Shown here in pieces: positions 13,620 through 35,506 of a DNA stretch of 64,000 nucleotides. Each line of letters opens with the position of its first letter. Position 1 is the stretch's first letter. This stretch comes from an uncultured Rivularia sp. (lineage in GTDB: Bacteria > Cyanobacteriota > Cyanobacteriia > Cyanobacteriales > Nostocaceae), in assembly GCA_963665115.1 (NCBI GenBank), contig OY762007.1, forward strand, positions 96,001 to 160,000. The letters are read 5' to 3'. The translations under genes and the position numbers were made by a program. The notes beneath the pieces were generated by a model. The model was not told the DNA's origin and did not search any database. It worked only from the letters and a program-made list of their open reading frames with translations.

Positions 13620-13705
13620 AATTACCAATTACCAATTACCAATTACCAATTACCAATTACCAATTACCAATTACCAATTACCAATTACCAATTACCAATT
13701 ACCAA
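13620..13705. repeat. STRR heptamer run (ATTACCA)n
   Basis: About 12 tandem units. Confidence 0.9.
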
Positions 13706-14598
13706 TTCCCTTTTTGCTGATAAATTGCTGCTAAGTTTCTTTGAGCCATTTGCCATTCGTCGGGATATGCTTCGCGGGTGTGAACTTGTAATGCTGCTTG
13801 ATAATGATAAATGGCTTTGTCAAGGTTGTTTGCTTTATCTTCCTTGACTCTGTTGGTATAAGCAGTACCCAAATTATTGTGAATCATTGCCCATTCATAA
13901 GGATATGTTTCGCGGGAATGAACTTTTAATCCAGCTTGATAGCAAGAAATCGCCTTTTCGATGTTTTCGGCTTTTTGCCCGCTAATTCTATCGGTGTAAG
14001 CATTCCCTAAATTATATTGAGTAGCCGCCCATTGTTCGGGATAATTGGACGAATTAAACACATGATTTACCACTTCATAACCTGCGATCGCAATTTCCAA
14101 GTTATTTAAGCGCTGCCCTAAAGGAAATTCCTGAATCAAGCTGCTGAAAATACCAATAGTTGTACCGATATCTTCTGCTTCTTCAGAAGTTGATTGAGAT
14201 ATTGCATCCATAGCCCAGCTTTTTAATACTTCAGCAAAATTATTGTCGAGTAATTCGATATTCTTGTGTAGTAAAGGATATACAGCTTCTGGATTACCTT
14301 CGCTTTCTTCAGTAACTAACAATGCCTGTATTAATAATTCACCTTGATTTTCCGCACTAAAATCTGATAATGATAATCCTAAAGCTTCAGCCAACTGAGT
14401 TGAAATACGTAACAAAAATTCCGCAGCATCTTCCTTACCTTGTTCAGAAAACCCTCGCGCTACCTCGATCGTAGTCTGTACTAACCCTGCATCGATATAT
14501 TCAGGTTCGGTATCTAAAGCTATTTCTTCTTCACTACCAGCATTTGTAAGTAATTGATTGATGATATTGAAATAAATTTGGAGACGCTTTTGATCCAT
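13699..14598 (-). CDS. TPR repeat protein
   Basis: WA..Q/HNNLG.AY..R....A.N.E.AI..Y.AL.V repeats typical of cyanobacterial TPR proteins. Confidence 0.8.
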   Translation of the reverse strand: MDQKRLQIYFNIINQLLTNAGSEEEIALDTEPEYIDAGLVQTTIEVARGFSEQGKEDAAEFLLRISTQLAEALGLSLSDFSAENQGELLIQALLVTEESEGNPEAVYPLLHKNIELLDNNFAEVLKSWAMDAISQSTSEEAEDIGTTIGIFSSLIQEFPLGQRLNNLEIAIAGYEVVNHVFNSSNYPEQWAATQYNLGNAYTDRISGQKAENIEKAISCYQAGLKVHSRETYPYEWAMIHNNLGTAYTNRVKEDKANNLDKAIYHYQAALQVHTREAYPDEWQMAQRNLAAIYQQKGNW

Positions 14599-14813: not shown

Positions 14814-16458
14814 CTACACAGCACAATTCAATTCCCCAGCTTTTTTAGTAAACCGCATATTTTCGCGATAATCTACACGACAATCAATTACCGCTGGAAC
14901 ATCTTGCGCTAAAGCTTCTTTGAGCATGGGCACTAAATCGGTAGCAGCTTCAACTCGATAACCTTTTAATCCCATACTTTCAGCAAATTTAACAAAGTCG
15001 GGATTACCAAATTTGATAAAAGATGCATTACCTTCACCAAATTGATTTTCCTGTTTCCACTCAATTAAACCATAACCGCCGTCGTTGAAAATCAAGGTTA
15101 CAAATGGCGTACCCACTCGCAAAGCTGTTTCCAATTCCTGAGAGTTCATCATAAAGCCGCCATCACCGCTGACAGCGACAACCTTACGGTTGGGATGAAC
15201 TAATTTCGCCGCTAAAGCACCGGGAATTGCAATTCCCATCGCTGCAAAACCATTGGAAATAATACAGGTATTTGGACTATGACAGTGATAATGACGGGCA
15301 ATCCACATTTTATGTGCGCCGACATCAGATATTACAATATCTTCAGGGCCCCATCACCTGCCGTAAGTCGTAAATTACTTTCTGCGGTTTCATGGGAAAT
15401 GCGTCATCTTTGGCGTGATATTCGTAATCTACACGAATATTTTCCCTGAGTTTAATCGCATAAGGAGACTCTTTATCATGTCTATTTGCTACCTTCAGAA
15501 TCTCGTTTAAAGAGTCAGTTATATCGCCAACAACTTCCACTTCCGGAATATAGCTACTATCTATTTCTGCTAACTTTGTAGCAATATGAATAATCGGAAT
15601 GTTCCCATCTGGATTCCATTTTTTCGGCGAAAATTCAATTAAATCGTAGCCAATTGCAATTACTAAGTCAGTATTATCAAAACCACAAATACTAAAATCT
15701 CTTTGCTGCAATCCTACAGTCCATAAAGCTAAAGGATGAGTATAAGGAATTATTCCTTTACCCATAAAAGTATTCGCAACCGGAATATTTAAGTCGGTAG
15801 CAAATTGAGTTACCGCATCGCTAGCATTTGCACGAATTGCTCCATTCCCAACTAAAATTATCGGATTTGTAGCTTGAGAAATTGCCGCAGCAGCAGCCCT
15901 AATAGTAGAGAAAGAAGCAAAACTTTTTTCTACATTATCTTTACCTAAAGGCTTACCTTCTACCGGCATTGCAGCGATGTTTTCGGGTAAGTCAATATGT
16001 ACCGCACCTGGTTTTTCTCTTTGCGCTCGTTTAAAAGCTTTGCGGACAATTTCCGGGGTAATACTCGGACGAACAATTTGCTTATTCCACTTAGTGACTG
16101 GTGCAAACATTGCTACCAAATCCAAATATTGATGGGATTCAATATGCATTCTATCGGTTCCCACCTGTCCGGTAATTGCTACCAAAGGCGCACCATCAAG
16201 GTTAGCATCTGCAACCCCAGTCATCAAATTAGTTGCACCGGGGCCAAGTGTAGAAAGACATACCCCAGCCTTCCCCGTCAAACGTCCGTAGACATCCGCC
16301 ATAAAAGCCGCACCTTGTTCGTGACGGGTAGTAATAAATTTAATTGGAGATGTTTTCAAAGCCTCCAAAACGTGTAAATTCTCTTCACCGGGGAGTCCAA
16401 ATACATATTCCACCCCTTCATTTTCCAAGCATTTGACTAGCAATTCTGCTGTATCCAT
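14814..16458 (-). CDS. ThDP-dependent acetolactate-synthase-like enzyme, probably 2-oxoglutarate decarboxylase (OgdA); +1 frameshift near 15347
   Basis: RHEQGAAFMA and GDGGF..N ThDP motifs; the two ORFs join as VMGP-EDIVISDVGAHKMW; adjacent to SSADH as in the cyanobacterial TCA shunt. Confidence 0.8.
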
Positions 16459-18059: not shown

Positions 18060-18284
18060 AACTTTTTTACAAATTCCTGGAATTTCGGGAAGCTATGCTA
18101 AACCCGCTGAAACTGAACCAGAGGTGACGGTTACGACTGTTGCAACTATTGTGGGAATTGTCGGTGGAACTATGGCGTAATACCTTTATGCATCAAGCTG
18201 AGCCGCACCTCGCGGTAAACGCTTATCGCCGAACAAGTCCATAAGTGGTATCTCGAATATAAACAGCACAAGCCTGGTAAAAAA
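18060..18284 (+). pseudogene. Decayed copy of the 107-aa gene at 19677-20000, 5'-truncated, with a 47-bp insertion in a HIP1 site
   Basis: Reads ..QIPGISGSYAKPAETEPEVTVTTVATIVGIVGGTMA|insert|IAEQVHKWYLEYKQHKPGKK, colinear with 19740-19910. Confidence 0.85.
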
Positions 18285-18412: not shown

Positions 18413-19195
18413 ATGAAAATCTCACCTAATTTTCGCGCAATGGTTTTAAATGCTACTGCTACGCTCATGGCTTTGGGGTTAAGCATCAGCACTGGAAGCA
18501 CAGTATTGGCACAATCCAAACCCACGATTTCAGTTCCAGAATTCAAAAATGAGTCAGCCTGGTGGTGGTGGCAGAGAAGCACTGCCAGAGATTTGGCAGC
18601 TGCGCTGAGTAATGAATTGAATGCGACAGGAAAGTTTACTGTGGTCGAGCGGCAAAAACTCGGAGCAGTTTTATCTGAACAGGAATTAGCCGAACTCGGG
18701 CTAGTCCGTCAAGGAACCGAAGCGAAGAAAGGACAACTAACAGGGTCTAGGTACATCGTGTTGGGTCAAGTAACATCCTACGAAGAAGGAGTTGCCAAAG
18801 AATCCACCAGAGGTCGAATCGGCGGTATCAAAGTTGGTGGCATTAGGATTGGAGGTGGCGGGGGTAAAAAGTCCCAGGACGCTTATATCGCCATCGATTT
18901 GCGAGTTGTTGATTCCACTACAGGCGAAGTAGTTTATGCGAGAACCGTAGAGGGCCGCGCTACCTCAAAATCTGGAGGTGGTAATGTAGGAGTGAGGTTA
19001 GGTGGTGTGAATTTGGGTGGCGATCGCTCCGAGACAAAGCGTGTCCCTGTAGGAAAAGCGCTGCGTGCAGCTTTAGTTGAAGCAACCGATTACTTGAGTT
19101 GTGTCATGGTTGAAAAAGGATCTTGTATCGCGAAGTTTGACGAGAAAGATCAAAAGCGTCGTGATAGCAACACAGATATACTGAAGCTAGACTAA
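18413..19195 (+). CDS. CsgG/HfaB family protein
   Basis: Signal peptide; I.V.EF.N, L...L...GKF.VVER..L..VL.EQ.L and IDLRVVD.TTGEVV motifs; Gly-rich beta-hairpin segments. Confidence 0.8.
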   Translation: MKISPNFRAMVLNATATLMALGLSISTGSTVLAQSKPTISVPEFKNESAWWWWQRSTARDLAAALSNELNATGKFTVVERQKLGAVLSEQELAELGLVRQGTEAKKGQLTGSRYIVLGQVTSYEEGVAKESTRGRIGGIKVGGIRIGGGGGKKSQDAYIAIDLRVVDSTTGEVVYARTVEGRATSKSGGGNVGVRLGGVNLGGDRSETKRVPVGKALRAALVEATDYLSCVMVEKGSCIAKFDEKDQKRRDSNTDILKLD

Positions 19196-19453: not shown

Positions 19454-19578
19454 TAAGCTGACGTGCAGTTAAATTGTATAAGGTAAAGAATTTGAACGAT
19501 TGTAGTGCGGGCATCTTGCCCGCTTCTCATATACATCTTGCCCGCTTCTCTTATACAAATTGAATACGCAACAGCTTA
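19454..19578. mobile_element. MITE-like element, copy 2 (with a 22-bp internal duplication)
   Basis: Matches 11402-11504 plus a tandem catcttgcccgcttctc(a/t)tata. Confidence 0.75.
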
Positions 19579-19676
19579 ACAAAATTTCTTCGGGAGATGG
19601 GGAGATGGAAAGAATTTTAACCTTAATTACTTCTAACCTTTTTTACAATGACATAGAAATGATTCGCAGGTAAATT

Positions 19677-20000
19677 ATGGCAGATATCCAAGTAGCAATC
19701 GAGGGTGAGAATGCAGTTTCCGCAACTGAGGAACTTTTGCAAATTTCTGGTATTTCGGGAAGCTATACTACACCCACAGAAACCGAAAGAGAGGGAACAG
19801 CCGCAACCATTGCAACCATCGTGGGAATTGTTGGGGGGACAATGGCGATCGCCGAACAAATTCGTAAGTGGTATATCGAATACAAACAGCACAAGTCTGG
19901 TAAGAAAATAGCCAAGGTGTTGATTGTGGGCAAGAATGGCGAAAGACTGATTTTGGAAGGGGCTACAGCCGAACAGATTCAGCGGATTTTGAGCAGTTAA
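19677..20000 (+). CDS. Small protein with a central Gly-rich hydrophobic segment (EACC1-like candidate protease partner)
   Basis: 107 aa; TAATIATIVGIVGGTMAIAEQIRKWY segment; directly upstream of a CHAT protease gene; family call is inference. Confidence 0.6.
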   Translation: MADIQVAIEGENAVSATEELLQISGISGSYTTPTETEREGTAATIATIVGIVGGTMAIAEQIRKWYIEYKQHKSGKKIAKVLIVGKNGERLILEGATAEQIQRILSS

Positions 20001-20203
20001 TCTATTTTCGTATTGCTAATTGATTTTTTGGATAACCGAAACCCTTGTAGAGACGTAGCAGTGCTACGTCTCAAAATCTAGATTCACACCTGACAGCAAA
20101 ACCTTTCAACACCGCAGGTAATTATTATATCTAAACAAAAACATCCGGAATCAAACTTGTTACCATTGGGGATAATATTTAACATCCCCATTTTCCCGGA
20201 TTT

Positions 20204-23200
20204 ATGCAAATCCTTCATTTTAATCTCAAGCTTTTACAGAATCATTGCGTAGAGTTACGTTATTTCGAGAATAATCCCAATCAGTATCAAAGCCGCTCTC
20301 TTCCTTTAACAGAGATTGCCGATTTAATTAGATTGGCAGAACAAGATTACTATATTCCTTTACCAGAAGACTATAAGAAAACGGGACAAAAATTATTTGA
20401 TTGGTTGGATGGAAATGACAGGTTTCTGCAACAATTGCTCGACAAGCAGCGGGGTGAAGGGATTGTTTTAGCCATCAGCACGTCGGGAAATATCGCGCAT
20501 CTACCTTGGGAATTATTACACAACGGTAAATGCTTCCTGGTAGAAACAAAACCGGGGATAATTCCGGTGCGGTGGGTGTCGTCAGATGCGGTAAAACAAC
20601 TATCAATCAAACCACAGCCAGAAAATCGAGCTTTGCAAATGCTGTTTATGGCGACTTCTCCTTTAAACGTAAAACCCGTATTGGATTTTGAGAAGGAAGA
20701 AGCGAGTATATTAACAGCTACAGCGCGACAACCTTTGACGTTGACGGTGGAAGAAAGCGGCTGTTTGCAAGAATTGGGATATTTAGTAGAAGATTACGGT
20801 AAAGAAGATGGTAAAAGTTATTTTGATGTTTTACATTTAACTGGTCATGCGACAATCAAGGATGAGACACCAGCTTTTATTACAGAATCGGCAACGGGTG
20901 AAGCTATAGAATCCACCGCCGACGATATCGCTTCAGAATTACAGTTTCAGCTACCCAAATTAATTTTCCTTTCCGGTTGTCGCACTGGGCAAGCAGCTAA
21001 CTGTGGTGCGGTGCCTTCGATGGCGGAATCTTTGCTTGATAAAGGTGCTACTTCGGTTTTGGGTTGGGGGCAAAAGGTTTTAGATGCTGATGCAACTGCT
21101 GCTGCTGAGAGTTTATATCAAGCTTTATCTGCGGGAAAGTTATTAAGCGAAAGTTTGGCTTTGACTTATCAAGCTTTGATTGAAAATAAAGCCAGAGATT
21201 GGCATTTACTGCGGCTGTATGTTGCGGATACTTTACCGGGGAATTTGGTGACATCTTTACGCACTACGGGAAGGATACCAGCATCACCTCGTTCGTTTAA
21301 TGCGGAATTTTTAGATGCTGCTGGTAAAGTGAAGGTGCCAACTAGAGAAAGTTTTGTTGGTAGAAGAAGACAGTTACAATGTTGTTTGAGAACTTTAACT
21401 TTACCCCTCCTAACCTCCCCTTATCAAGGAGAGGAAATTAGTGGAAGAATCGGCGTGTTAATTCATGGAATGGGAGGATTGGGTAAAAGTAGTTTAGCTG
21501 CAAGATTATGTGACAGGTTAACTAATTTTCAGCGCGTTGTTTGGGTGGGAGCAATTGACGAAGCAAGTTTAGTAAATCGTTTGACGGAGAAATTAGATAA
21601 TCAAACCTTGCGAGAAACGCTGCAAAATCCAGATGAAGAATTAAAATTTCGGTTGAGAAGAGTTTTTAATTCATTGCAAGAAACCGGGAATAATCCTTTT
21701 TTACTAGTTTTAGACGACTTTGAAGCCAACTTAGAACCCCGCAACGACAGTTATATATTGCTTCCAGTTGCAGCAAAGGTATTATCAGCTTTAGTTTGGG
21801 CAATTAATGAAACTGACAAACTCCAACGAATTATAATTACCTGTCGCTATGACTTTGAATCAAGTTCTTTACAGCACTTCTACAAACAACCTTTAGAAGG
21901 AATGCATGGTGCAGACTTGCGAAAAAAGCTGAATCGTCTCGCTGCTTTTGAGGAAACATCCCAAGTAGACGAGACGTTACAAGCAAAAGCGCAACGGTTA
22001 GCAGATGGTAATCCCCGGTTGTTGGAATGGTTGGATAAATTATTGCAATCTAATGTTGATGTTGCGGCAATTTTAGATAAATTAGCAGATGATTCTGTAG
22101 AATTGCGAGAGCAGGTTTTAGCTGAAAAATTGTTGCAGCAGATGGATGATACCATGCGAGAAATGTTGCAGCTTGGTTTGGTGTTTGAGTTACCAGTACC
22201 CAGGGAAGCTTTAGAAATCGTTTGTGAAAATATTGCGGAAGTGCAACAGTATATAGATAAAGCGATCGCGTTGGGGTTGTTGGAAGTTAGCCCGGATAAG
22301 TCGTTGCGGGTGCCGAGGATTTTACCTTTGAAGAAATTAAATTCTGGCTTACCCACAGATAATGAAATTACAGTCATTGCGACGACAGGAAGCAATCGCG
22401 AAATATTTGAGATAGCTGCACAGGTTTTATATCGGTTGTGGCGGGAAGATAAAGAAACTTATATAGAAGAGCAAGCATTAGAAATTCATCGCTTGGCTTT
22501 GTTGGGGAGAGAAACCGAAATTTCTGGTAATTTAGCATCTAATCTAGCAAATAACTGGTGGCATAAAAATCGTTATAGAGAAACAGTAGAACTTTGTAAA
22601 TCAACCTTAGAAATTATAGAAGATTATCGTCTTCTCAAGCCAATGGCTTATTGTCAGCAACAATTGGGTGAAGTTGAACAAGCATCAAAGAATTATCAGC
22701 AAGCCTTAAAACTTTGTCCGTTGAAAGAGGAAGCAGAGACATCAGCCATTTATCTTTCTTTTGGAATGCTCAAAGCACAACAAGGTGATGTCGAACAAGC
22801 AATCAACCTTTACCAACAATCTTTGGAATTAGAAGAAAGAATTGGTAACGTACAAGGAAAAGCTGCAATTATTCACAATCTTGCCATAATTTACGCACAA
22901 CGTGGTGAAGTCGATGAAGCAATCAACCTTTACCAACAATCTTTGGATTTAGATGAAAGAATTGGTAACGTACAAGGAAAAGCTGCTTCTCTACACCAAC
23001 TTGCAGGAATTTACGCACAACGTGGTGATGTCGATGAAGCAATCAACCTTTACCAACAATCTTTGGAATTATATGAAAGAATTGGTAACGTACAAGGAAA
23101 AGCTGCTTCTCTACACTGTCTTGCCATAATTTACGCACAACGTGGTGATGTCGATGAAGCAATCAACCTTTACCAACAATCTTTGGAATTATATGAAAGA

Positions 23201-24301
23201 ATTGGTAACGTACAAGGAAAAGCTGCTTCTCTACACCAACTTGCAGGAATTTACGCACAACGTGGTGATGTCGATGAAGCAATCAACCTTTACCAACAAT
23301 CTTTGGAATTAACAGAAAGAATTGGTAACGTACAAGGAAAAGCTGCTTCTCTACACCAACTTGCAGGAATTTACGCACAACGTGGTGATGTCGATGAAGC
23401 AATCAACCTTTACCAACAATCTTTGGAATTATATGAAAGAATTGGTAACGTACAAGGAAAAGCTGCTTCTCTACACCAACTTGCAGGAATTTACGCACAA
23501 CGTGGTGATGTCGATGAAGCAATCAACCTTTACCAACAATCTTTGGAATTAAAAGAAAGAATTGGTAACGTACAAGGAAAAGCTGCTTCTCTACACCAAC
23601 TTGCAGGAATTTACGCACAACGTGGTGAAGTCGATGAAGCAATCAACCTTTACCAACAATCTTTGGAATTATATGAAAGAATTGGTGACGTACAAGGAAA
23701 AGCTGCTTCTCTACACCAACTTGCAGGAATTTACGCACAACGTGGTGATGTCGATGAAGCAATCAACCTTTACCAACAATCTTTGGAATTAACAGAAAGA
23801 ATTGGTGACGTACAAGGAAAAGCTGCTTCTCTACACCAACTTGCAGGAATTTACGCACAACGTGGTGAAGTCGATGAAGCAATCAACCTTTACCAACAAT
23901 CTTTGGATTTAGATGAAAGAATTGGTAACGTACAAGGAAAAGCTGCTTCTCTACACCAACTTGCAGGAATTTACGCACAACGTGGTGATGTCGATGAAGC
24001 AATCAACCTTTACCAACAATCTTTGGAATTAAAAGAAAGAATTGGTGACGTACAAGGAAAAGCTGCTTCTCTAGGTATGCTTGGACAACTTTTAGCTGAT
24101 GAAAAGCAAGACTTTACAACCGCACTGGACTATTTACAGCAATCTTTTGAGATATTACAGCGTATCAAGTCACCGGATGCTCAAACTGTAAAGGAAATAA
24201 TTGATAGAATTAAAGCTGCACAAATTAGATCGACAAGTCAAGATTCTAGTAATGGGATTATTTCTCTTTGGCGAAAATTAGTTAATAAGATAAGAAGTTA
24301 G
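20204..24301 (+). CDS. CHAT (caspase-like) protease - STAND/NB-ARC-like NTPase - TPR protein
   Basis: LPWELL, VLHLTGHA (His), IFLSGCRTG (Cys), FVGRR, Walker A GMGGLGKSS, Walker B LLVLDDFE, DGNPRLL, C-terminal 40-aa TPR array. Confidence 0.9.
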   Translation: MQILHFNLKLLQNHCVELRYFENNPNQYQSRSLPLTEIADLIRLAEQDYYIPLPEDYKKTGQKLFDWLDGNDRFLQQLLDKQRGEGIVLAISTSGNIAHLPWELLHNGKCFLVETKPGIIPVRWVSSDAVKQLSIKPQPENRALQMLFMATSPLNVKPVLDFEKEEASILTATARQPLTLTVEESGCLQELGYLVEDYGKEDGKSYFDVLHLTGHATIKDETPAFITESATGEAIESTADDIASELQFQLPKLIFLSGCRTGQAANCGAVPSMAESLLDKGATSVLGWGQKVLDADATAAAESLYQALSAGKLLSESLALTYQALIENKARDWHLLRLYVADTLPGNLVTSLRTTGRIPASPRSFNAEFLDAAGKVKVPTRESFVGRRRQLQCCLRTLTLPLLTSPYQGEEISGRIGVLIHGMGGLGKSSLAARLCDRLTNFQRVVWVGAIDEASLVNRLTEKLDNQTLRETLQNPDEELKFRLRRVFNSLQETGNNPFLLVLDDFEANLEPRNDSYILLPVAAKVLSALVWAINETDKLQRIIITCRYDFESSSLQHFYKQPLEGMHGADLRKKLNRLAAFEETSQVDETLQAKAQRLADGNPRLLEWLDKLLQSNVDVAAILDKLADDSVELREQVLAEKLLQQMDDTMREMLQLGLVFELPVPREALEIVCENIAEVQQYIDKAIALGLLEVSPDKSLRVPRILPLKKLNSGLPTDNEITVIATTGSNREIFEIAAQVLYRLWREDKETYIEEQALEIHRLALLGRETEISGNLASNLANNWWHKNRYRETVELCKSTLEIIEDYRLLKPMAYCQQQLGEVEQASKNYQQALKLCPLKEEAETSAIYLSFGMLKAQQGDVEQAINLYQQSLELEERIGNVQGKAAIIHNLAIIYAQRGEVDEAINLYQQSLDLDERIGNVQGKAASLHQLAGIYAQRGDVDEAINLYQQSLELYERIGNVQGKAASLHCLAIIYAQRGDVDEAINLYQQSLELYERIGNVQGKAASLHQLAGIYAQRGDVDEAINLYQQSLELTERIGNVQGKAASLHQLAGIYAQRGDVDEAINLYQQSLELYERIGNVQGKAASLHQLAGIYAQRGDVDEAINLYQQSLELKERIGNVQGKAASLHQLAGIYAQRGEVDEAINLYQQSLELYERIGDVQGKAASLHQLAGIYAQRGDVDEAINLYQQSLELTERIGDVQGKAASLHQLAGIYAQRGEVDEAINLYQQSLDLDERIGNVQGKAASLHQLAGIYAQRGDVDEAINLYQQSLELKERIGDVQGKAASLGMLGQLLADEKQDFTTALDYLQQSFEILQRIKSPDAQTVKEIIDRIKAAQIRSTSQDSSNGIISLWRKLVNKIRS
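22775..24072 (+). repeat. Intragenic tandem array of ~11 near-identical 120-bp (40-aa TPR) units
   Basis: aatcaacctttaccaacaatctttgga recurs at 22801, 22921 ... 24001 with an exact 120-bp period. Confidence 0.95.
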
Positions 24302-31981: not shown

Positions 31982-34900
31982 ATGGCTTATATAAATGATT
32001 TTAAAAGTTCAAAAACCAATAATTATCAGTATCAGGTTGGTGGTAGTTTAGAAAATGATGCTGCCTGTTATGTAGTGCGTGAGGCTGATGAGGAACTTTA
32101 TCAAGCTCTAAAAGCTGGAGAGTTTTGCTATGTATTTAACTCTCGACAAATGGGTAAGTCATCAATTATGGTACGCACCAGCCATAGATTAAAAGAAGAA
32201 GAATATAAATGTACTACTGTTGATATGAGTTGCGTTGGTAGCGAGCAAGTAACTCACGCTCAATGGTACAAAGGAGTAGTTGCTGAATTATGGCGAGGAT
32301 TTCGCTTATTTGGCAAGTTTGACTTAAAATCTTGGTGGCGTGAAGAGGAAGATATCTCAGTGCTTCAACGCTTGAGCCATTTTATCGAAGATGTGCTGTT
32401 AGTACAATTTCCAAAAGATAAAATAATTATATTTATTGATGAAATTGATAGTATTCTCAGTTTAGATTTTCCTGTAGATGATTTATTTGCTTTAATTCGC
32501 TTCTGCTATAACCAAAGAGCATTAAATCCAGAATATCATCGTCTAACTTTTGCTATTTTCGGAGTAGCTACACCAAGCGATTTAATAGCTGATAAAAATC
32601 GTACTCCATTTAATATTGGAAAGCCAATAGAGTTAAAGGGATTTACATTAGATAAAGCACAACATTTAGTTAAAGGTTTAGAAGGGAAAGTTAGCAATCC
32701 TCAAGGAGTTTTTCAAGAAATACTAGCTTGGACTAACGGACAGCCATTTCTCACTCAGAAACTTTGCAAAATGGTGAAAAATAGGGAATGTGTAATTTCA
32801 GAATCAGCAAATAATGTTCAAGATGAAGTTGACAAATTAGTCAATACGCAGATAATTCATAATTGGGAATCACAAGACGAACCCGAACATTTGAGAACTA
32901 TTAGAGATAGAATTCTCCAGCAACAGAAAGCAGGTAGATTGCTCGGTATATATCAGCAGATTTTACAAGGTGTAGAAGTAGAAGCAGATATCAGTAAAGA
33001 GCAAACAGAATTATTTTTATCTGGGTTAGTTATTAAAGACAATAATTTACTCAAAGTTAAAAATCGTATTTATGCAGAAGTATTTAATTTAAATTGGGTA
33101 GCAATAAAATTAACTCAATTACGTCCTTATTCCCAAGCTTTTGATGCTTGGATAATTTCACATCAAACAGATTCTTCACGGCTTTTGCAGGGAAAAGCTT
33201 TAAAAGATGCTAGAAAATGGACTCAAGGAAAAAGTTTAAGTGATTTAGACTATCAATTTTTAACAGCGTCCGAACAGTTTGATAATAATCAAATTCAGCA
33301 ACAATTAGAAGCGCAAAAAGTTAAGGAAATTGAAGCACGTTTCAAAGCAGAAACAAAAAGCGCTAGACGCTTGAATTCGTTGTTATTTGTAGTTAGCAGT
33401 GCTTTAATAATTGTAAGTATTTTAGCTTATATAACATTTGTAGCTTACCGTGAAGCAAAGTTGAATGAAGTTAAAGCCACGGCTACTTCTTCTAGAACTT
33501 TATTTGCATTGGAAAAACGTTTGGATGCATTGATTCTAGGGTTAAGAGCAAATAAGAAGTTTAAAGAATTTGGTGGAGTTGACTCTCCAACAAAAAGAAT
33601 AGTTAAAACTGCTTTAAGAAATGCTCTTTTTTCAGCAGTTGAATATAATCGTATTACTGGAATTGATGCTCAAGTTTGGGATGTTGATTTTAGCCCAAAT
33701 GGTAAAATTATTGCTACTGCTCATAGAGATAATACAATTCAACTTTGGACTCGTGATGGTAAAAACATTGCAATTTTAAAAGGTCATGAAAGTGCTGTTA
33801 GAAGTGTTAGTTTTAGTCCAGATGGACAATTTATTGCTTCTACCAGTAGAGATAAAACAATCAAGTTATGGGATAAAAAAGGTGTTTTACTAAAAACCTT
33901 AACAGTTCATAAAGATGTAGTTGCAAAAGTAGTTTTTAGTCCTGATAGTAAAATTTTTGCCTCCGCTAGCCAAGATAAAACAATTAAAATTTGGACTATC
34001 CACGGTGAATTACTGCGTAGCTTCAAAGCCCATAAAAATTGGATTCCGGAAATTGCTTTTAGCCCAGATGGTAAAAAAATTGCTTCTGCTAGTATCGATC
34101 GAACCGTGAAACTTTGGAATCTCAATGGTGAATTGCTACAAACTTTTAGTCACAACCAAGATGTTTGGACTGTAGATTTTAGTCCAGATGGTAAAACCAT
34201 TATTTCAGGAGGTTCTAACAAAACAATTAAAATTTGGCAAATAGAAGATGGAAAATTAATTGATACTTTAAAAAATCATATTTCTGGAGTATGGAAAGTA
34301 CGATTTAGTCCCGATGGTAAAACTATCGCTTCTGCAAGTTGGGATAAAACGATTAAATTATGGAATACGAATGGGGTTTTATTAAAAACGTTAAAAGGTC
34401 ATAATGGTAGAGTCCGAGGTTTAGCTTGGAGTCCCGACAGTGAAACACTTGCTTCTACAAGTGAAGATAAAACTATCAGATTTTGGAATTTAAATAATGC
34501 TTTAGTTAAAACTGTTTATGGTCATGCCAATGGAATAATTCGAGTTGCTGTTAGTTCGGATGGCAAAATGATAGCTTCGGCAAGCGATGATAACACCGTA
34601 AAACTTTGGAGTCGAGATGGTAGATTAATTCAAACTATCAAAGCTCATAATCGAGGTGTTCTTGATGTTGCATTTAATCCTAATAGCAAAATTATTGCTT
34701 CAGCAAGTAACGACGAACAAATTAAACTATGGACTATTGAAGGTAAAAAAATAGGAACTTTAAAAGGACATACTGCTCCCATTTGGTCTGTAAATTTTAG
34801 TCCCGATGGTAACACTCTTGTTTCAGGAAGTGAAGATGGTACGGTTAAATTATGGAATATTGATGGTAGTTTATTAAATACTATAAATACAGATCAAGGA

Positions 34901-35506
34901 ATAATTCGAGCAGTTGCATTTAGTCCCGACGGTAAAATTATTGCTTCCGGTGGAAAAAATAAAACTATTAAATTGTGGAATCGTCAAGGAAAACTGCTTA
35001 AAACCTTAAAAGGTCATTACGATAACGTTGTAGCAATTGCATTTAGTCCAAATGGTGAAATGATTGCTTCTGCAAGTTTGGATAAAAATATTAAGCTTTG
35101 GAATCGTAATGGTGAACTGATTAATACTTTGCAAGGACACAATACTGATGTGAGAGGAGTTACATTTCTTTCTACACCTCTTAGCTCCTCCGATAATAAT
35201 AAACAGCAAAAGCAGAAAAACTATATGATTGCTTCGGCTAGTGGTGACAATACAGTTAAATTGTGGAATACAAATGGAAAGTTAATTACAACCTTACAAG
35301 GACATAAAGGTGCTGTTTGGGATGTAGAATTTACTCCCGACGGAAAAACTCTTGTTTCCGGAAGCGAAGACAATACATTGATGCTGTGGAATTTAGAAAA
35401 AGTTATTGATAGCGACAAAGTTCTCGATTACGCTTGTGATTTAGTCAGGGATTATTTAAAAAATAGTGCAGAAGTTGACTCCGAAGATAGGTATTTGTGT
35501 GATTAA
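31982..35506 (+). CDS. AAA-like (AAA_35) STAND-type NTPase with a TM helix and ~14 WD40 repeats
   Basis: [31 protein letters not shown] segment; FSPDG..ASAS.D.T.KLW repeats. Confidence 0.88.

Follow-up and report, generated by a model that had tools for sequence, protein, structure and literature searches.

EACC1 two-gene systems are defined by a small 5' gene, whose product carries a hydrophobic segment rich in small residues, followed by a 3' gene for a caspase-superfamily protease with variable C-terminal domains, and a sensor role was originally proposed for EACC1 (Kaur et al. 2020, PMC7159879). Trigger-dependent toxicity was described for one such pair from Ktedonobacter racemifer, KrEACC1-KrAvs12: KrAvs12 cleaves EACC1 to pieces of 5.7 and 7.1 kDa at a site modelled at Asp49, toxicity is confined to the C-terminal piece, and the cleaved protein leaks liposomes (Evans et al. 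2025, 10.1101/2025.11.14.688446). A precedent for the receptor side is given by Avs proteins, whose tetratricopeptide repeat (TPR) sensors are described as binding phage proteins (PMC13581612). Here a gene pair is described from a window of 64,000 nucleotides of an uncultured Rivularia sp. (contig OY762007.1, positions 96,001 to 160,000; assembly GCA_963665115.1), the window being the whole stretch of DNA analysed. The pair encodes a small protein of 107 amino acids and a CHAT-STAND-TPR protein of 1365 amino acids (Table 1). The two genes form a conserved module, whose STAND receptor carries a separase-type CHAT protease that probably cleaves the EACC1-like partner after Arg38 and frees a fragment predicted to form pores and kill the cell.

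Like the EACC1-caspase pairs, including KrEACC1-KrAvs12, the pair has a small 5' gene whose product contains one hydrophobic small-residue segment with alpha/beta flanks, and a 3' gene in which an N-terminal caspase-superfamily protease is fused to a STAND sensor. KrEACC1 is of similar size (114 amino acids), and its 7.1-kDa C-terminal piece compares with one of 7.45 kDa predicted here. In a by-eye comparison (Asp49 taken from Table S1), Arg38 of the Rivularia protein and Asp49 of KrEACC1 occupy the same place in a P1-x-G-T-hydrophobic motif, which is followed by a similar h-A-Q/E-x-h-x-x-W helix. In contrast to the Ktedonobacter system, the pair lies under the cut-off of the EACC1 profile PF19953 and is mainly cyanobacterial; its protease is a 345-residue separase/Csx29-type CHAT region with Cys259, where KrAvs12 has a shorter caspase-like domain with Cys152; the predicted P1 residue is Arg or Lys instead of Asp; and a constant STAND module precedes a near-identical TPR array or a GUN4 domain. 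The separase-type protease with its predicted basic P1 residue, and the homogenised sensor, are new relative to known EACC1 systems. A literature description of the CHAT-paired cyanobacterial clade was not found, and the figures of Evans et al. may already show EACC1 with CHAT-STAND-TPR partners.

The sequence-only reading of this DNA had described an intact His/Cys dyad, Walker A and B motifs and a TPR array in the large protein, and all of these were recovered. The dyad lies in HLTGH (residues 211-215) and LSGC (256-259); Walker A is GMGGLGKS (422-429) and Walker B LVLDD (501-505), followed by IITCR (544) and GNPR (602); and Pfam TPR_12 matches 12 stretches. Pfam also places CHAT (PF12770) at residues 59-332 (E 2e-20; 73.9 bits, cut-off 24) and finds NB-ARC (E 1.8e-7) and nSTAND1 (E 7.3e-7), each above its cut-off. 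The STAND nucleoside triphosphatase (NTPase), with intact Walker A and B motifs, sits between the N-terminal protease and the C-terminal repeats, as in Avs/STAND receptors, and Walker A is intact in all 66 long homologues. Contigs of run X1 agree with positions 19506-22826 without a differing letter, and pieces from X2 and X3 cover parts of this region with 0-1 differences; runs X1-X3 come from a single study that may be the source of the assembly, and the TPR array is spanned by no listed run contig. A promoter and terminator scan gave only a chance-level result.

The two genes are consistently found together. The small gene is conserved, with 372 relatives at E<=0.001 among 415 candidates, and its named close relatives belong to Rivularia, Calothrix and Richelia, which points to a filamentous Nostocales cyanobacterium as the probable host. 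Co-occurrence of the two genes in other genomes, the absence of which the sequence-only reading had named among the findings that would refute its proposal, is strong. Genome loci (the best 80 of 240 confirmed) gave 77 with a CHAT gene that begins no more than 2 kb downstream of the small gene and on its strand, the remaining three having a CHAT gene upstream, none within 4.6 kb, or only 263 bases of sequence. Metagenome loci (the best 80 of 147) gave adjacency in 64; 11 were too short downstream, 3 were unscored and 2 were without a CHAT gene. A sample of 301 genomes was also drawn evenly from the phylum, of which 39 matched the small gene at E<=0.01. Once partial and weak matches were dropped, 29 full-length matches were left in 26 genomes; 27 are followed by a CHAT gene and two are orphans. 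Conversely, a full-length small gene lies upstream of 27 of the 29 close CHAT matches in this sample, the other two being preceded by a divergent copy of 124 amino acids and by a copy cut by the contig end. A consistently adjacent 3' gene with an N-terminal caspase-superfamily peptidase, as seen here, is one of the features of EACC1 two-gene systems. The divergent partner (L249:1767-2138) weakly matches the small-protein family at E 9e-8, has no PF19953 match, and is possibly a bridge to other EACC1 clades.

The small protein was modelled with AlphaFold at a predicted local distance difference test score (pLDDT) of 86.7, in the order strand-helix-strand-loop-strand-helix-strand-strand-helix, with its least confident block at residues 31-40 (mean pLDDT 67). 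The uncut protein is predicted to be a soluble ferredoxin-like monomer. The acidic N-terminus, charged linker and basic C-terminus that had been read from the sequence are borne out by net charges of -7 (residues 1-39), 0 (40-58) and +5 (59-107) and by TETEREG at residues 34-40. The description of the protein as a membrane hairpin was rejected: it has a single hydrophobic segment (best 19-residue hydropathy 1.75, residues 41-59; family median 2.13 against 0.64 for the second-best segment in 119 sequences), which forms a core strand in the model. One conserved hydrophobic segment rich in small residues, with alpha/beta extensions, is the form of the 5' product in EACC1 systems.

Fold comparison pointed in the same direction. 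The predicted model of a homologue 85% identical to the small protein (P0010) matches an actinobacterial EACC1 cluster with template modelling (TM) scores of 0.71/0.70 over 96 residues, a match between predicted models on both sides that reaches the naming bar of the Atlas. ACT domains score lower against the same model (TM 0.53-0.54). EACC1 is the nearest named Atlas fold, and a feature search of the Atlas, the same source as the fold match, gave clusters with 10% EACC1 members. PF19953 weakly matches two divergent relatives, L107 at E 0.004 (profile positions 18-99 of 107) and L106 at E 0.026 (positions 14-99). A Foldseek search of the small protein against solved structures gave nothing at E<=0.001, and a wider search of solved structures gave a best Z of 6.9, to generic ferredoxin/ACT-like folds. 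No significant name for the protein came from Pfam, NCBIfam or PADLOC, and at E<=1 the Pfam profiles for Pepco, Trypco and bacterial gasdermins matched neither the small protein itself nor any of its 46 close relatives and 14 other proteins scanned. Since fold and context match while the Pfam cut-off is missed, the protein is called EACC1-like; of the earlier assignment to the EACC1 type, the part that stands is at the level of fold and weak relatives' matches, and the part that fails is the profile cut-off. A further cyanobacterial EACC1-type family (that of L081) occurs in the same hosts, is collinear with the small protein from end to end (100-105 columns), and at L081 is followed by a caspase-like gene. 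It differs in being only about 12-15% identical and nearer to PF19953 (12 of 22 members match at E<=0.1).

Residues 1-345 of the large protein were modelled with a pLDDT of 87.1. Over this whole length the model matches Csx29 (Z 20.5) and human separase (Z 18.9); SAVED-CHAT is matched at Z 15.8 over residues 143-345 and caspases at Z about 10 over residues 129-345. A search of Protein Data Bank sequences with the CHAT alignment gave one chance match (E 0.26). The CHAT profile, the His/Cys dyad and the two-part fold together characterize the separase/Csx29 type, and the protease is predicted to have this fold. Csx29 (the TPR-CHAT protein of Craspase), SAVED-CHAT and separase have the protease fold and the dyad in common with the large protein. 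They differ from it in that the Rivularia locus has no CRISPR or SAVED link and is predicted to use activation by a STAND switch and a small pore-precursor substrate.

The position of the cut was addressed in an alignment of pairs (117 non-identical out of 131), in all 117 of which the protease dyad is intact. Residue 38 of the small protein is Arg in 90 and Lys in 27 of these pairs, and Arg or Lys in all 119 close sequences. At residue 39, 110 pairs carry Glu, 5 Gly, 1 Asp and 1 Ala, whereas Pro occurs at residue 40 of 13 pairs. Pro at P1' blocks most proteases. The variability of residue 39 and the Pro at residue 40 argue against cleavage after Glu39, and the scissile position, which had been placed near the linker, is now refined to a likely cut after Arg38. 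It is highly unlikely that the module works as proposed with cleavage after the acidic Glu39 and Arg38 as a P2 contact. Glu39 is present in 118 of 119 close relatives, and the sole mapped EACC1 site, Asp49 of KrEACC1, is acidic (10.1101/2025.11.14.688446), yet six pairs have Gly or Ala at residue 39, and acidic residues stand at both predicted S1 anchors, namely the invariant Glu163/165/166 and Asp294.

Asp294 is at the start of helix 295-309, which follows strand 284-289, the fifth core strand of the protease model. Its placement is similar to that of Asp1082, the P1-Arg anchor in a C. elegans separase model (PMC4626109), as mapped by secondary-structure position and not by residue alignment. 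Asp294 was singled out in advance, on background knowledge of separase, and the columns were ranked afterwards; residue 294 then ranked first of the 345 columns for association with Arg or Lys in the partner. All 90 Arg pairs have Asp at this position, as do 15 of the 27 Lys pairs. Lys branches account for 22% of the tree, and each of the three lineage-level losses of Asp294 is on such a branch (rough p 0.011). A specificity link between Arg38 and Asp294 is suggestive, not established. Cleavage after Arg38 would give an N-terminal piece (residues 1-38) of 4.0 kDa and the 7.45-kDa C-terminal fragment, with an isoelectric point of 9.7.

The mechanism that we favour is built on the gene pair itself, the intact dyad and P-loop, and the conserved basic residue. 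In the uncut partner, the acidic residues 1-38 are predicted to cover the hydrophobic segment within the soluble monomer. A foreign ligand, probably a phage protein, would bind the TPR array, the STAND module would oligomerise, and the protease would switch on, as in Avs proteins. The partner would then be cut at Arg38/Glu39, with Asp294 in the S1 pocket. Since the model places the hydrophobic segment in a core strand, a cut in the loop would release this segment from the strands on its N-terminal side. By analogy with the Ktedonobacter EACC1, the basic C-terminal fragment would oligomerise in the membrane, so that the cell dies and the filament is protected. The sequence of cut and then pore has already been demonstrated for the EACC1 kind by KrEACC1-KrAvs12; for the pair described here it is proposed by analogy.

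Several findings weigh against this proposal. The small protein in the window has no PF19953 match at all, the best relative reaches 17.6 bits (E 0.004) against a curated cut-off of 23.6 bits, and two of 46 close relatives match, weakly (best E 0.037). PF19953 found nothing in the same genome and one match in the 301 genomes; a canonical-looking EACC1 type (P0121) also scores slightly under the cut-off, at 23.0 bits, and the profile is therefore narrow. Comparison of the small-protein family with the cyanobacterial EACC1-type family by profiles was collinear and weak (E 0.31; P 0.011-0.038; E 0.006 with a probability of 6%), with shallow alignments and a comparison set of cyanobacteria only. 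With respect to cleavage, a strict ExxR site was rejected, the acidic P4 of the separase type being present in only 63 of the 117 pairs, and the association of Arg/Lys with Asp294 was not significant on independent pairs, which were too few to reach significance. A sister clade of six loci (L242-L246, L248) has the intact dyad and no small gene nearby. A copy of the module was not found in the viral contigs searched. The flanks are ordinary, with no defence-island context: of 147 representatives of 267 flanking-gene clusters, 12 match PADLOC, mostly through generic domains (cyclases, kinases, a methylase), in a scan with no control run. In close relatives the pair stays beside gabD.

The sister-clade receptors are CHAT-STAND-TPR proteins 45-50% identical to the large protein, with an insertion after the catalytic His. 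They account for six of seven more distant CHAT matches that were counted separately, the seventh being degenerate. Since these six loci have the dyad and no small gene, receptors of this type can exist without a small partner. Such partner-less receptors would fit a scheme in which the small protein is a regulator, either a securin-like inhibitor or a membrane sensor, and the protease cuts itself or other host proteins. The separase-like fold, the sensor role proposed for EACC1 (Kaur et al. 2020, PMC7159879) and the phage protection described for an effector-free caspase (10.1101/2025.11.14.688446) point the same way. Against this, residue 38 is invariantly Arg or Lys, although a pseudo-substrate should have no P1 residue; the hydrophobic segment is also conserved, and the C-terminal fragment of KrEACC1 is reported to be toxic alone (10.1101/2025.11.14.688446). 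A regulatory role is distinctly improbable. The orphan small genes do not separate the regulator and killer models.

The proposed sensor is made up of eleven 40-amino-acid TPR units that are 80-100% identical in DNA (mean 93%). Variation among them is concentrated at unit positions 19, 34 and 37, which also vary most across 187 pattern-matched units taken from the 66 long homologues. These homologues span 706 to 1610 amino acids with variable TPR counts. Of 12 C-termini that were selected for scanning because their ends were unusual, 7 carry GUN4 in place of the TPRs. The variable C-terminal domains expected behind an EACC1-system protease are thus present, the last domain alone varying (TPR array or GUN4) behind a constant STAND module. 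Among 59 loci with sufficient DNA, the large open reading frame (ORF) is shorter than 900 amino acids in 19, and assembly errors may account for some of these. The X4 version of the gene carries a 4-base deletion and 118 differing bases in about 2000, compared with 3-12 differences per 1.3-1.6 kb of upstream flank. The sensor variation, the short ORFs and the X4 divergence are the behaviour of a conflict gene. Five copies of the module are on plasmids; in the two from Nostoc punctiforme, the ORFs of the pair overlap, by 4 bases in one and by 1 base in the other.

These observations bear on the trigger. The same cut-and-pore biochemistry could respond to a host signal or stress and serve programmed death in filament development or breakage instead of phage defence. 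In keeping with this, the flanks lack a defence-island context, the position is fixed within lineages, stress sensing has been suggested for EACC1-DnaK fusions (10.1101/2025.11.14.688446), the cyanobacterial CHAT protein HetF is described as acting in development (PMC9457339), and GUN4-like sensors are described as tetrapyrrole-binding (PMC8195603). The patchy presence of the full-length gene (26 of 301 genomes), the short ORFs, the plasmid copies and the fast-changing repeat sensor are more in keeping with conflict genes than with a core switch in development, and a host trigger is considered unlikely. Assignment to an Avs family gave no Avs model match in the 2023 release of PADLOC, which predates newer families, and no match by term or accession in the part of the supplements of PMC13581612 that was searched. 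The effector-STAND-TPR architecture is shared with the Avs receptors (PMC13581612), from which the large protein differs in the homogenised tandem repeat array that serves as the predicted sensor. By analogy only, the large protein resembles fungal receptors of the nucleotide-binding, leucine-rich-repeat-like (NLR) type described as having high internal repeat conservation (PMC4986451, PMC12222747), with an effector-NTPase-repeat order and near-identical repeats of variable number that differ at a few hypervariable positions. A rather unlikely extension of the favoured mechanism is that an Arg/Lys-specific separase-type protease acts at the EACC1 scissile position that caspase partners cut after Asp, and that a recombining, hypervariable TPR receptor provides fungal-style non-self recognition and cell sacrifice in filaments, and not a fixed detector of a phage protein.

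The architecture itself will be expected by specialists, the predicted specificity switch and the putatively repeat-shuffled sensor being the new parts. If the proposal holds, a pore-forming suicide module tested in one Ktedonobacter pair would extend to a widespread cyanobacterial clade missed by Pfam, and Arg38 with Asp294 would give a residue-level prediction of the way in which another protease family recognises this type of latent effector. Nostoc punctiforme PCC 73102 has named plasmid copies (NPUN_RS35065/35070 and NPUN_RS35420/35415), of which one ends in a GUN4 sensor, and these make filament cell death and its trigger directly testable.

Table 1 Features of the gene pair and its upstream neighbourhood, by position in the window
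Feature	Position	Strand	Basis
Small EACC1-like gene, 107 amino acids, predicted latent pore-forming effector	19677..20000	+	ORF, relatives, fold
Arg38 codon, predicted P1, in low-confidence loop between strands 2 and 3	19788..19790	+	Arg/Lys in 119/119 sequences and 117/117 pairs; pLDDT
Hydrophobic small-residue-rich segment, residues 40-58; strand 3 and start of helix 2 in uncut-monomer model	19794..19850	+	
CHAT-STAND-TPR ORF, 1365 amino acids	20204-24301	+	ORF list
Separase/Csx29-type protease region (predicted), residues 1-345: N-terminal subdomain and CHAT catalytic domain	20204..21238	+	Pfam CHAT, model, fold search
Protease catalytic residues His215; Cys259	20846-20848; 20978-20980	+	Motifs, conservation
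Protease predicted S1 residue Asp294	21083-21085	+	
STAND NTPase module (Walker A 21467-21490, Walker B 21704-21718)	21239..22603	+	NB-ARC and nSTAND1
Array of eleven 40-amino-acid TPR units, predicted sensor	22778..24097	+	Pfam TPR, repeat comparison
Decayed, partial duplicate of small gene, retaining just codons 20-79 and lacking a start codon	18064..18290	+	Same sequence in X1-X3 contigs
csgG-family gene between decayed and intact small-gene copies	18413-19195		

Upstream of the pair, a 47-base insert at 18178-18224 interrupts a GCGATCGC site in the decayed copy of the small gene. The insert partly matches a short stretch downstream of a gene that we take to be petA-like. In nine close relatives gabD is directly upstream of the pair and csgG is absent; the decayed copy occupies the ancestral position next to gabD. 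Further upstream, an acetolactate-synthase-like gene is split in the window (14814-16458). The split is probably an assembly error, because X2, X3 and X4 are one base short of X1 at 15346. Together with gabD this gene resembles the cyanobacterial 2-oxoglutarate bypass pair. A 299-amino-acid TPR-like protein with weak TPR-S similarity is encoded at 13699-14598 and is retained near the module in close relatives; at L004 a CHAT-like ORF lies in the region of this gene. A gene for a 1174-amino-acid NTPase-WD40 receptor-like protein, judged from its translation alone, lies 7.7 kb downstream of the pair (31982-35506). Elsewhere in the same genome, a single contig of 8.69 Mb, is one copy of the cyanobacterial EACC1-type family of L081, a canonical-type EACC1-like gene (L236:1047-1427; G000:C1:484746-485126). 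It has no protease gene directly downstream and is possibly an orphan, or else its product is a substrate in trans.

Variants of the module were seen in other genomes. On both Nostoc punctiforme plasmids the pair is immediately preceded, on its own strand, by a small ParG-like gene (L255:5698-5859, L256:5741-5887), a possible regulator. In four genomes of one genus (G119, G148, G156, G188) the small gene is reduced to its first 45 codons and there is no close CHAT match, which suggests a shared loss of the module. Longer forms of the small protein account for five matches, among them P0147, a probable deletion-fusion. A few of the metagenome loci (L146-L148, L163) are high in GC.

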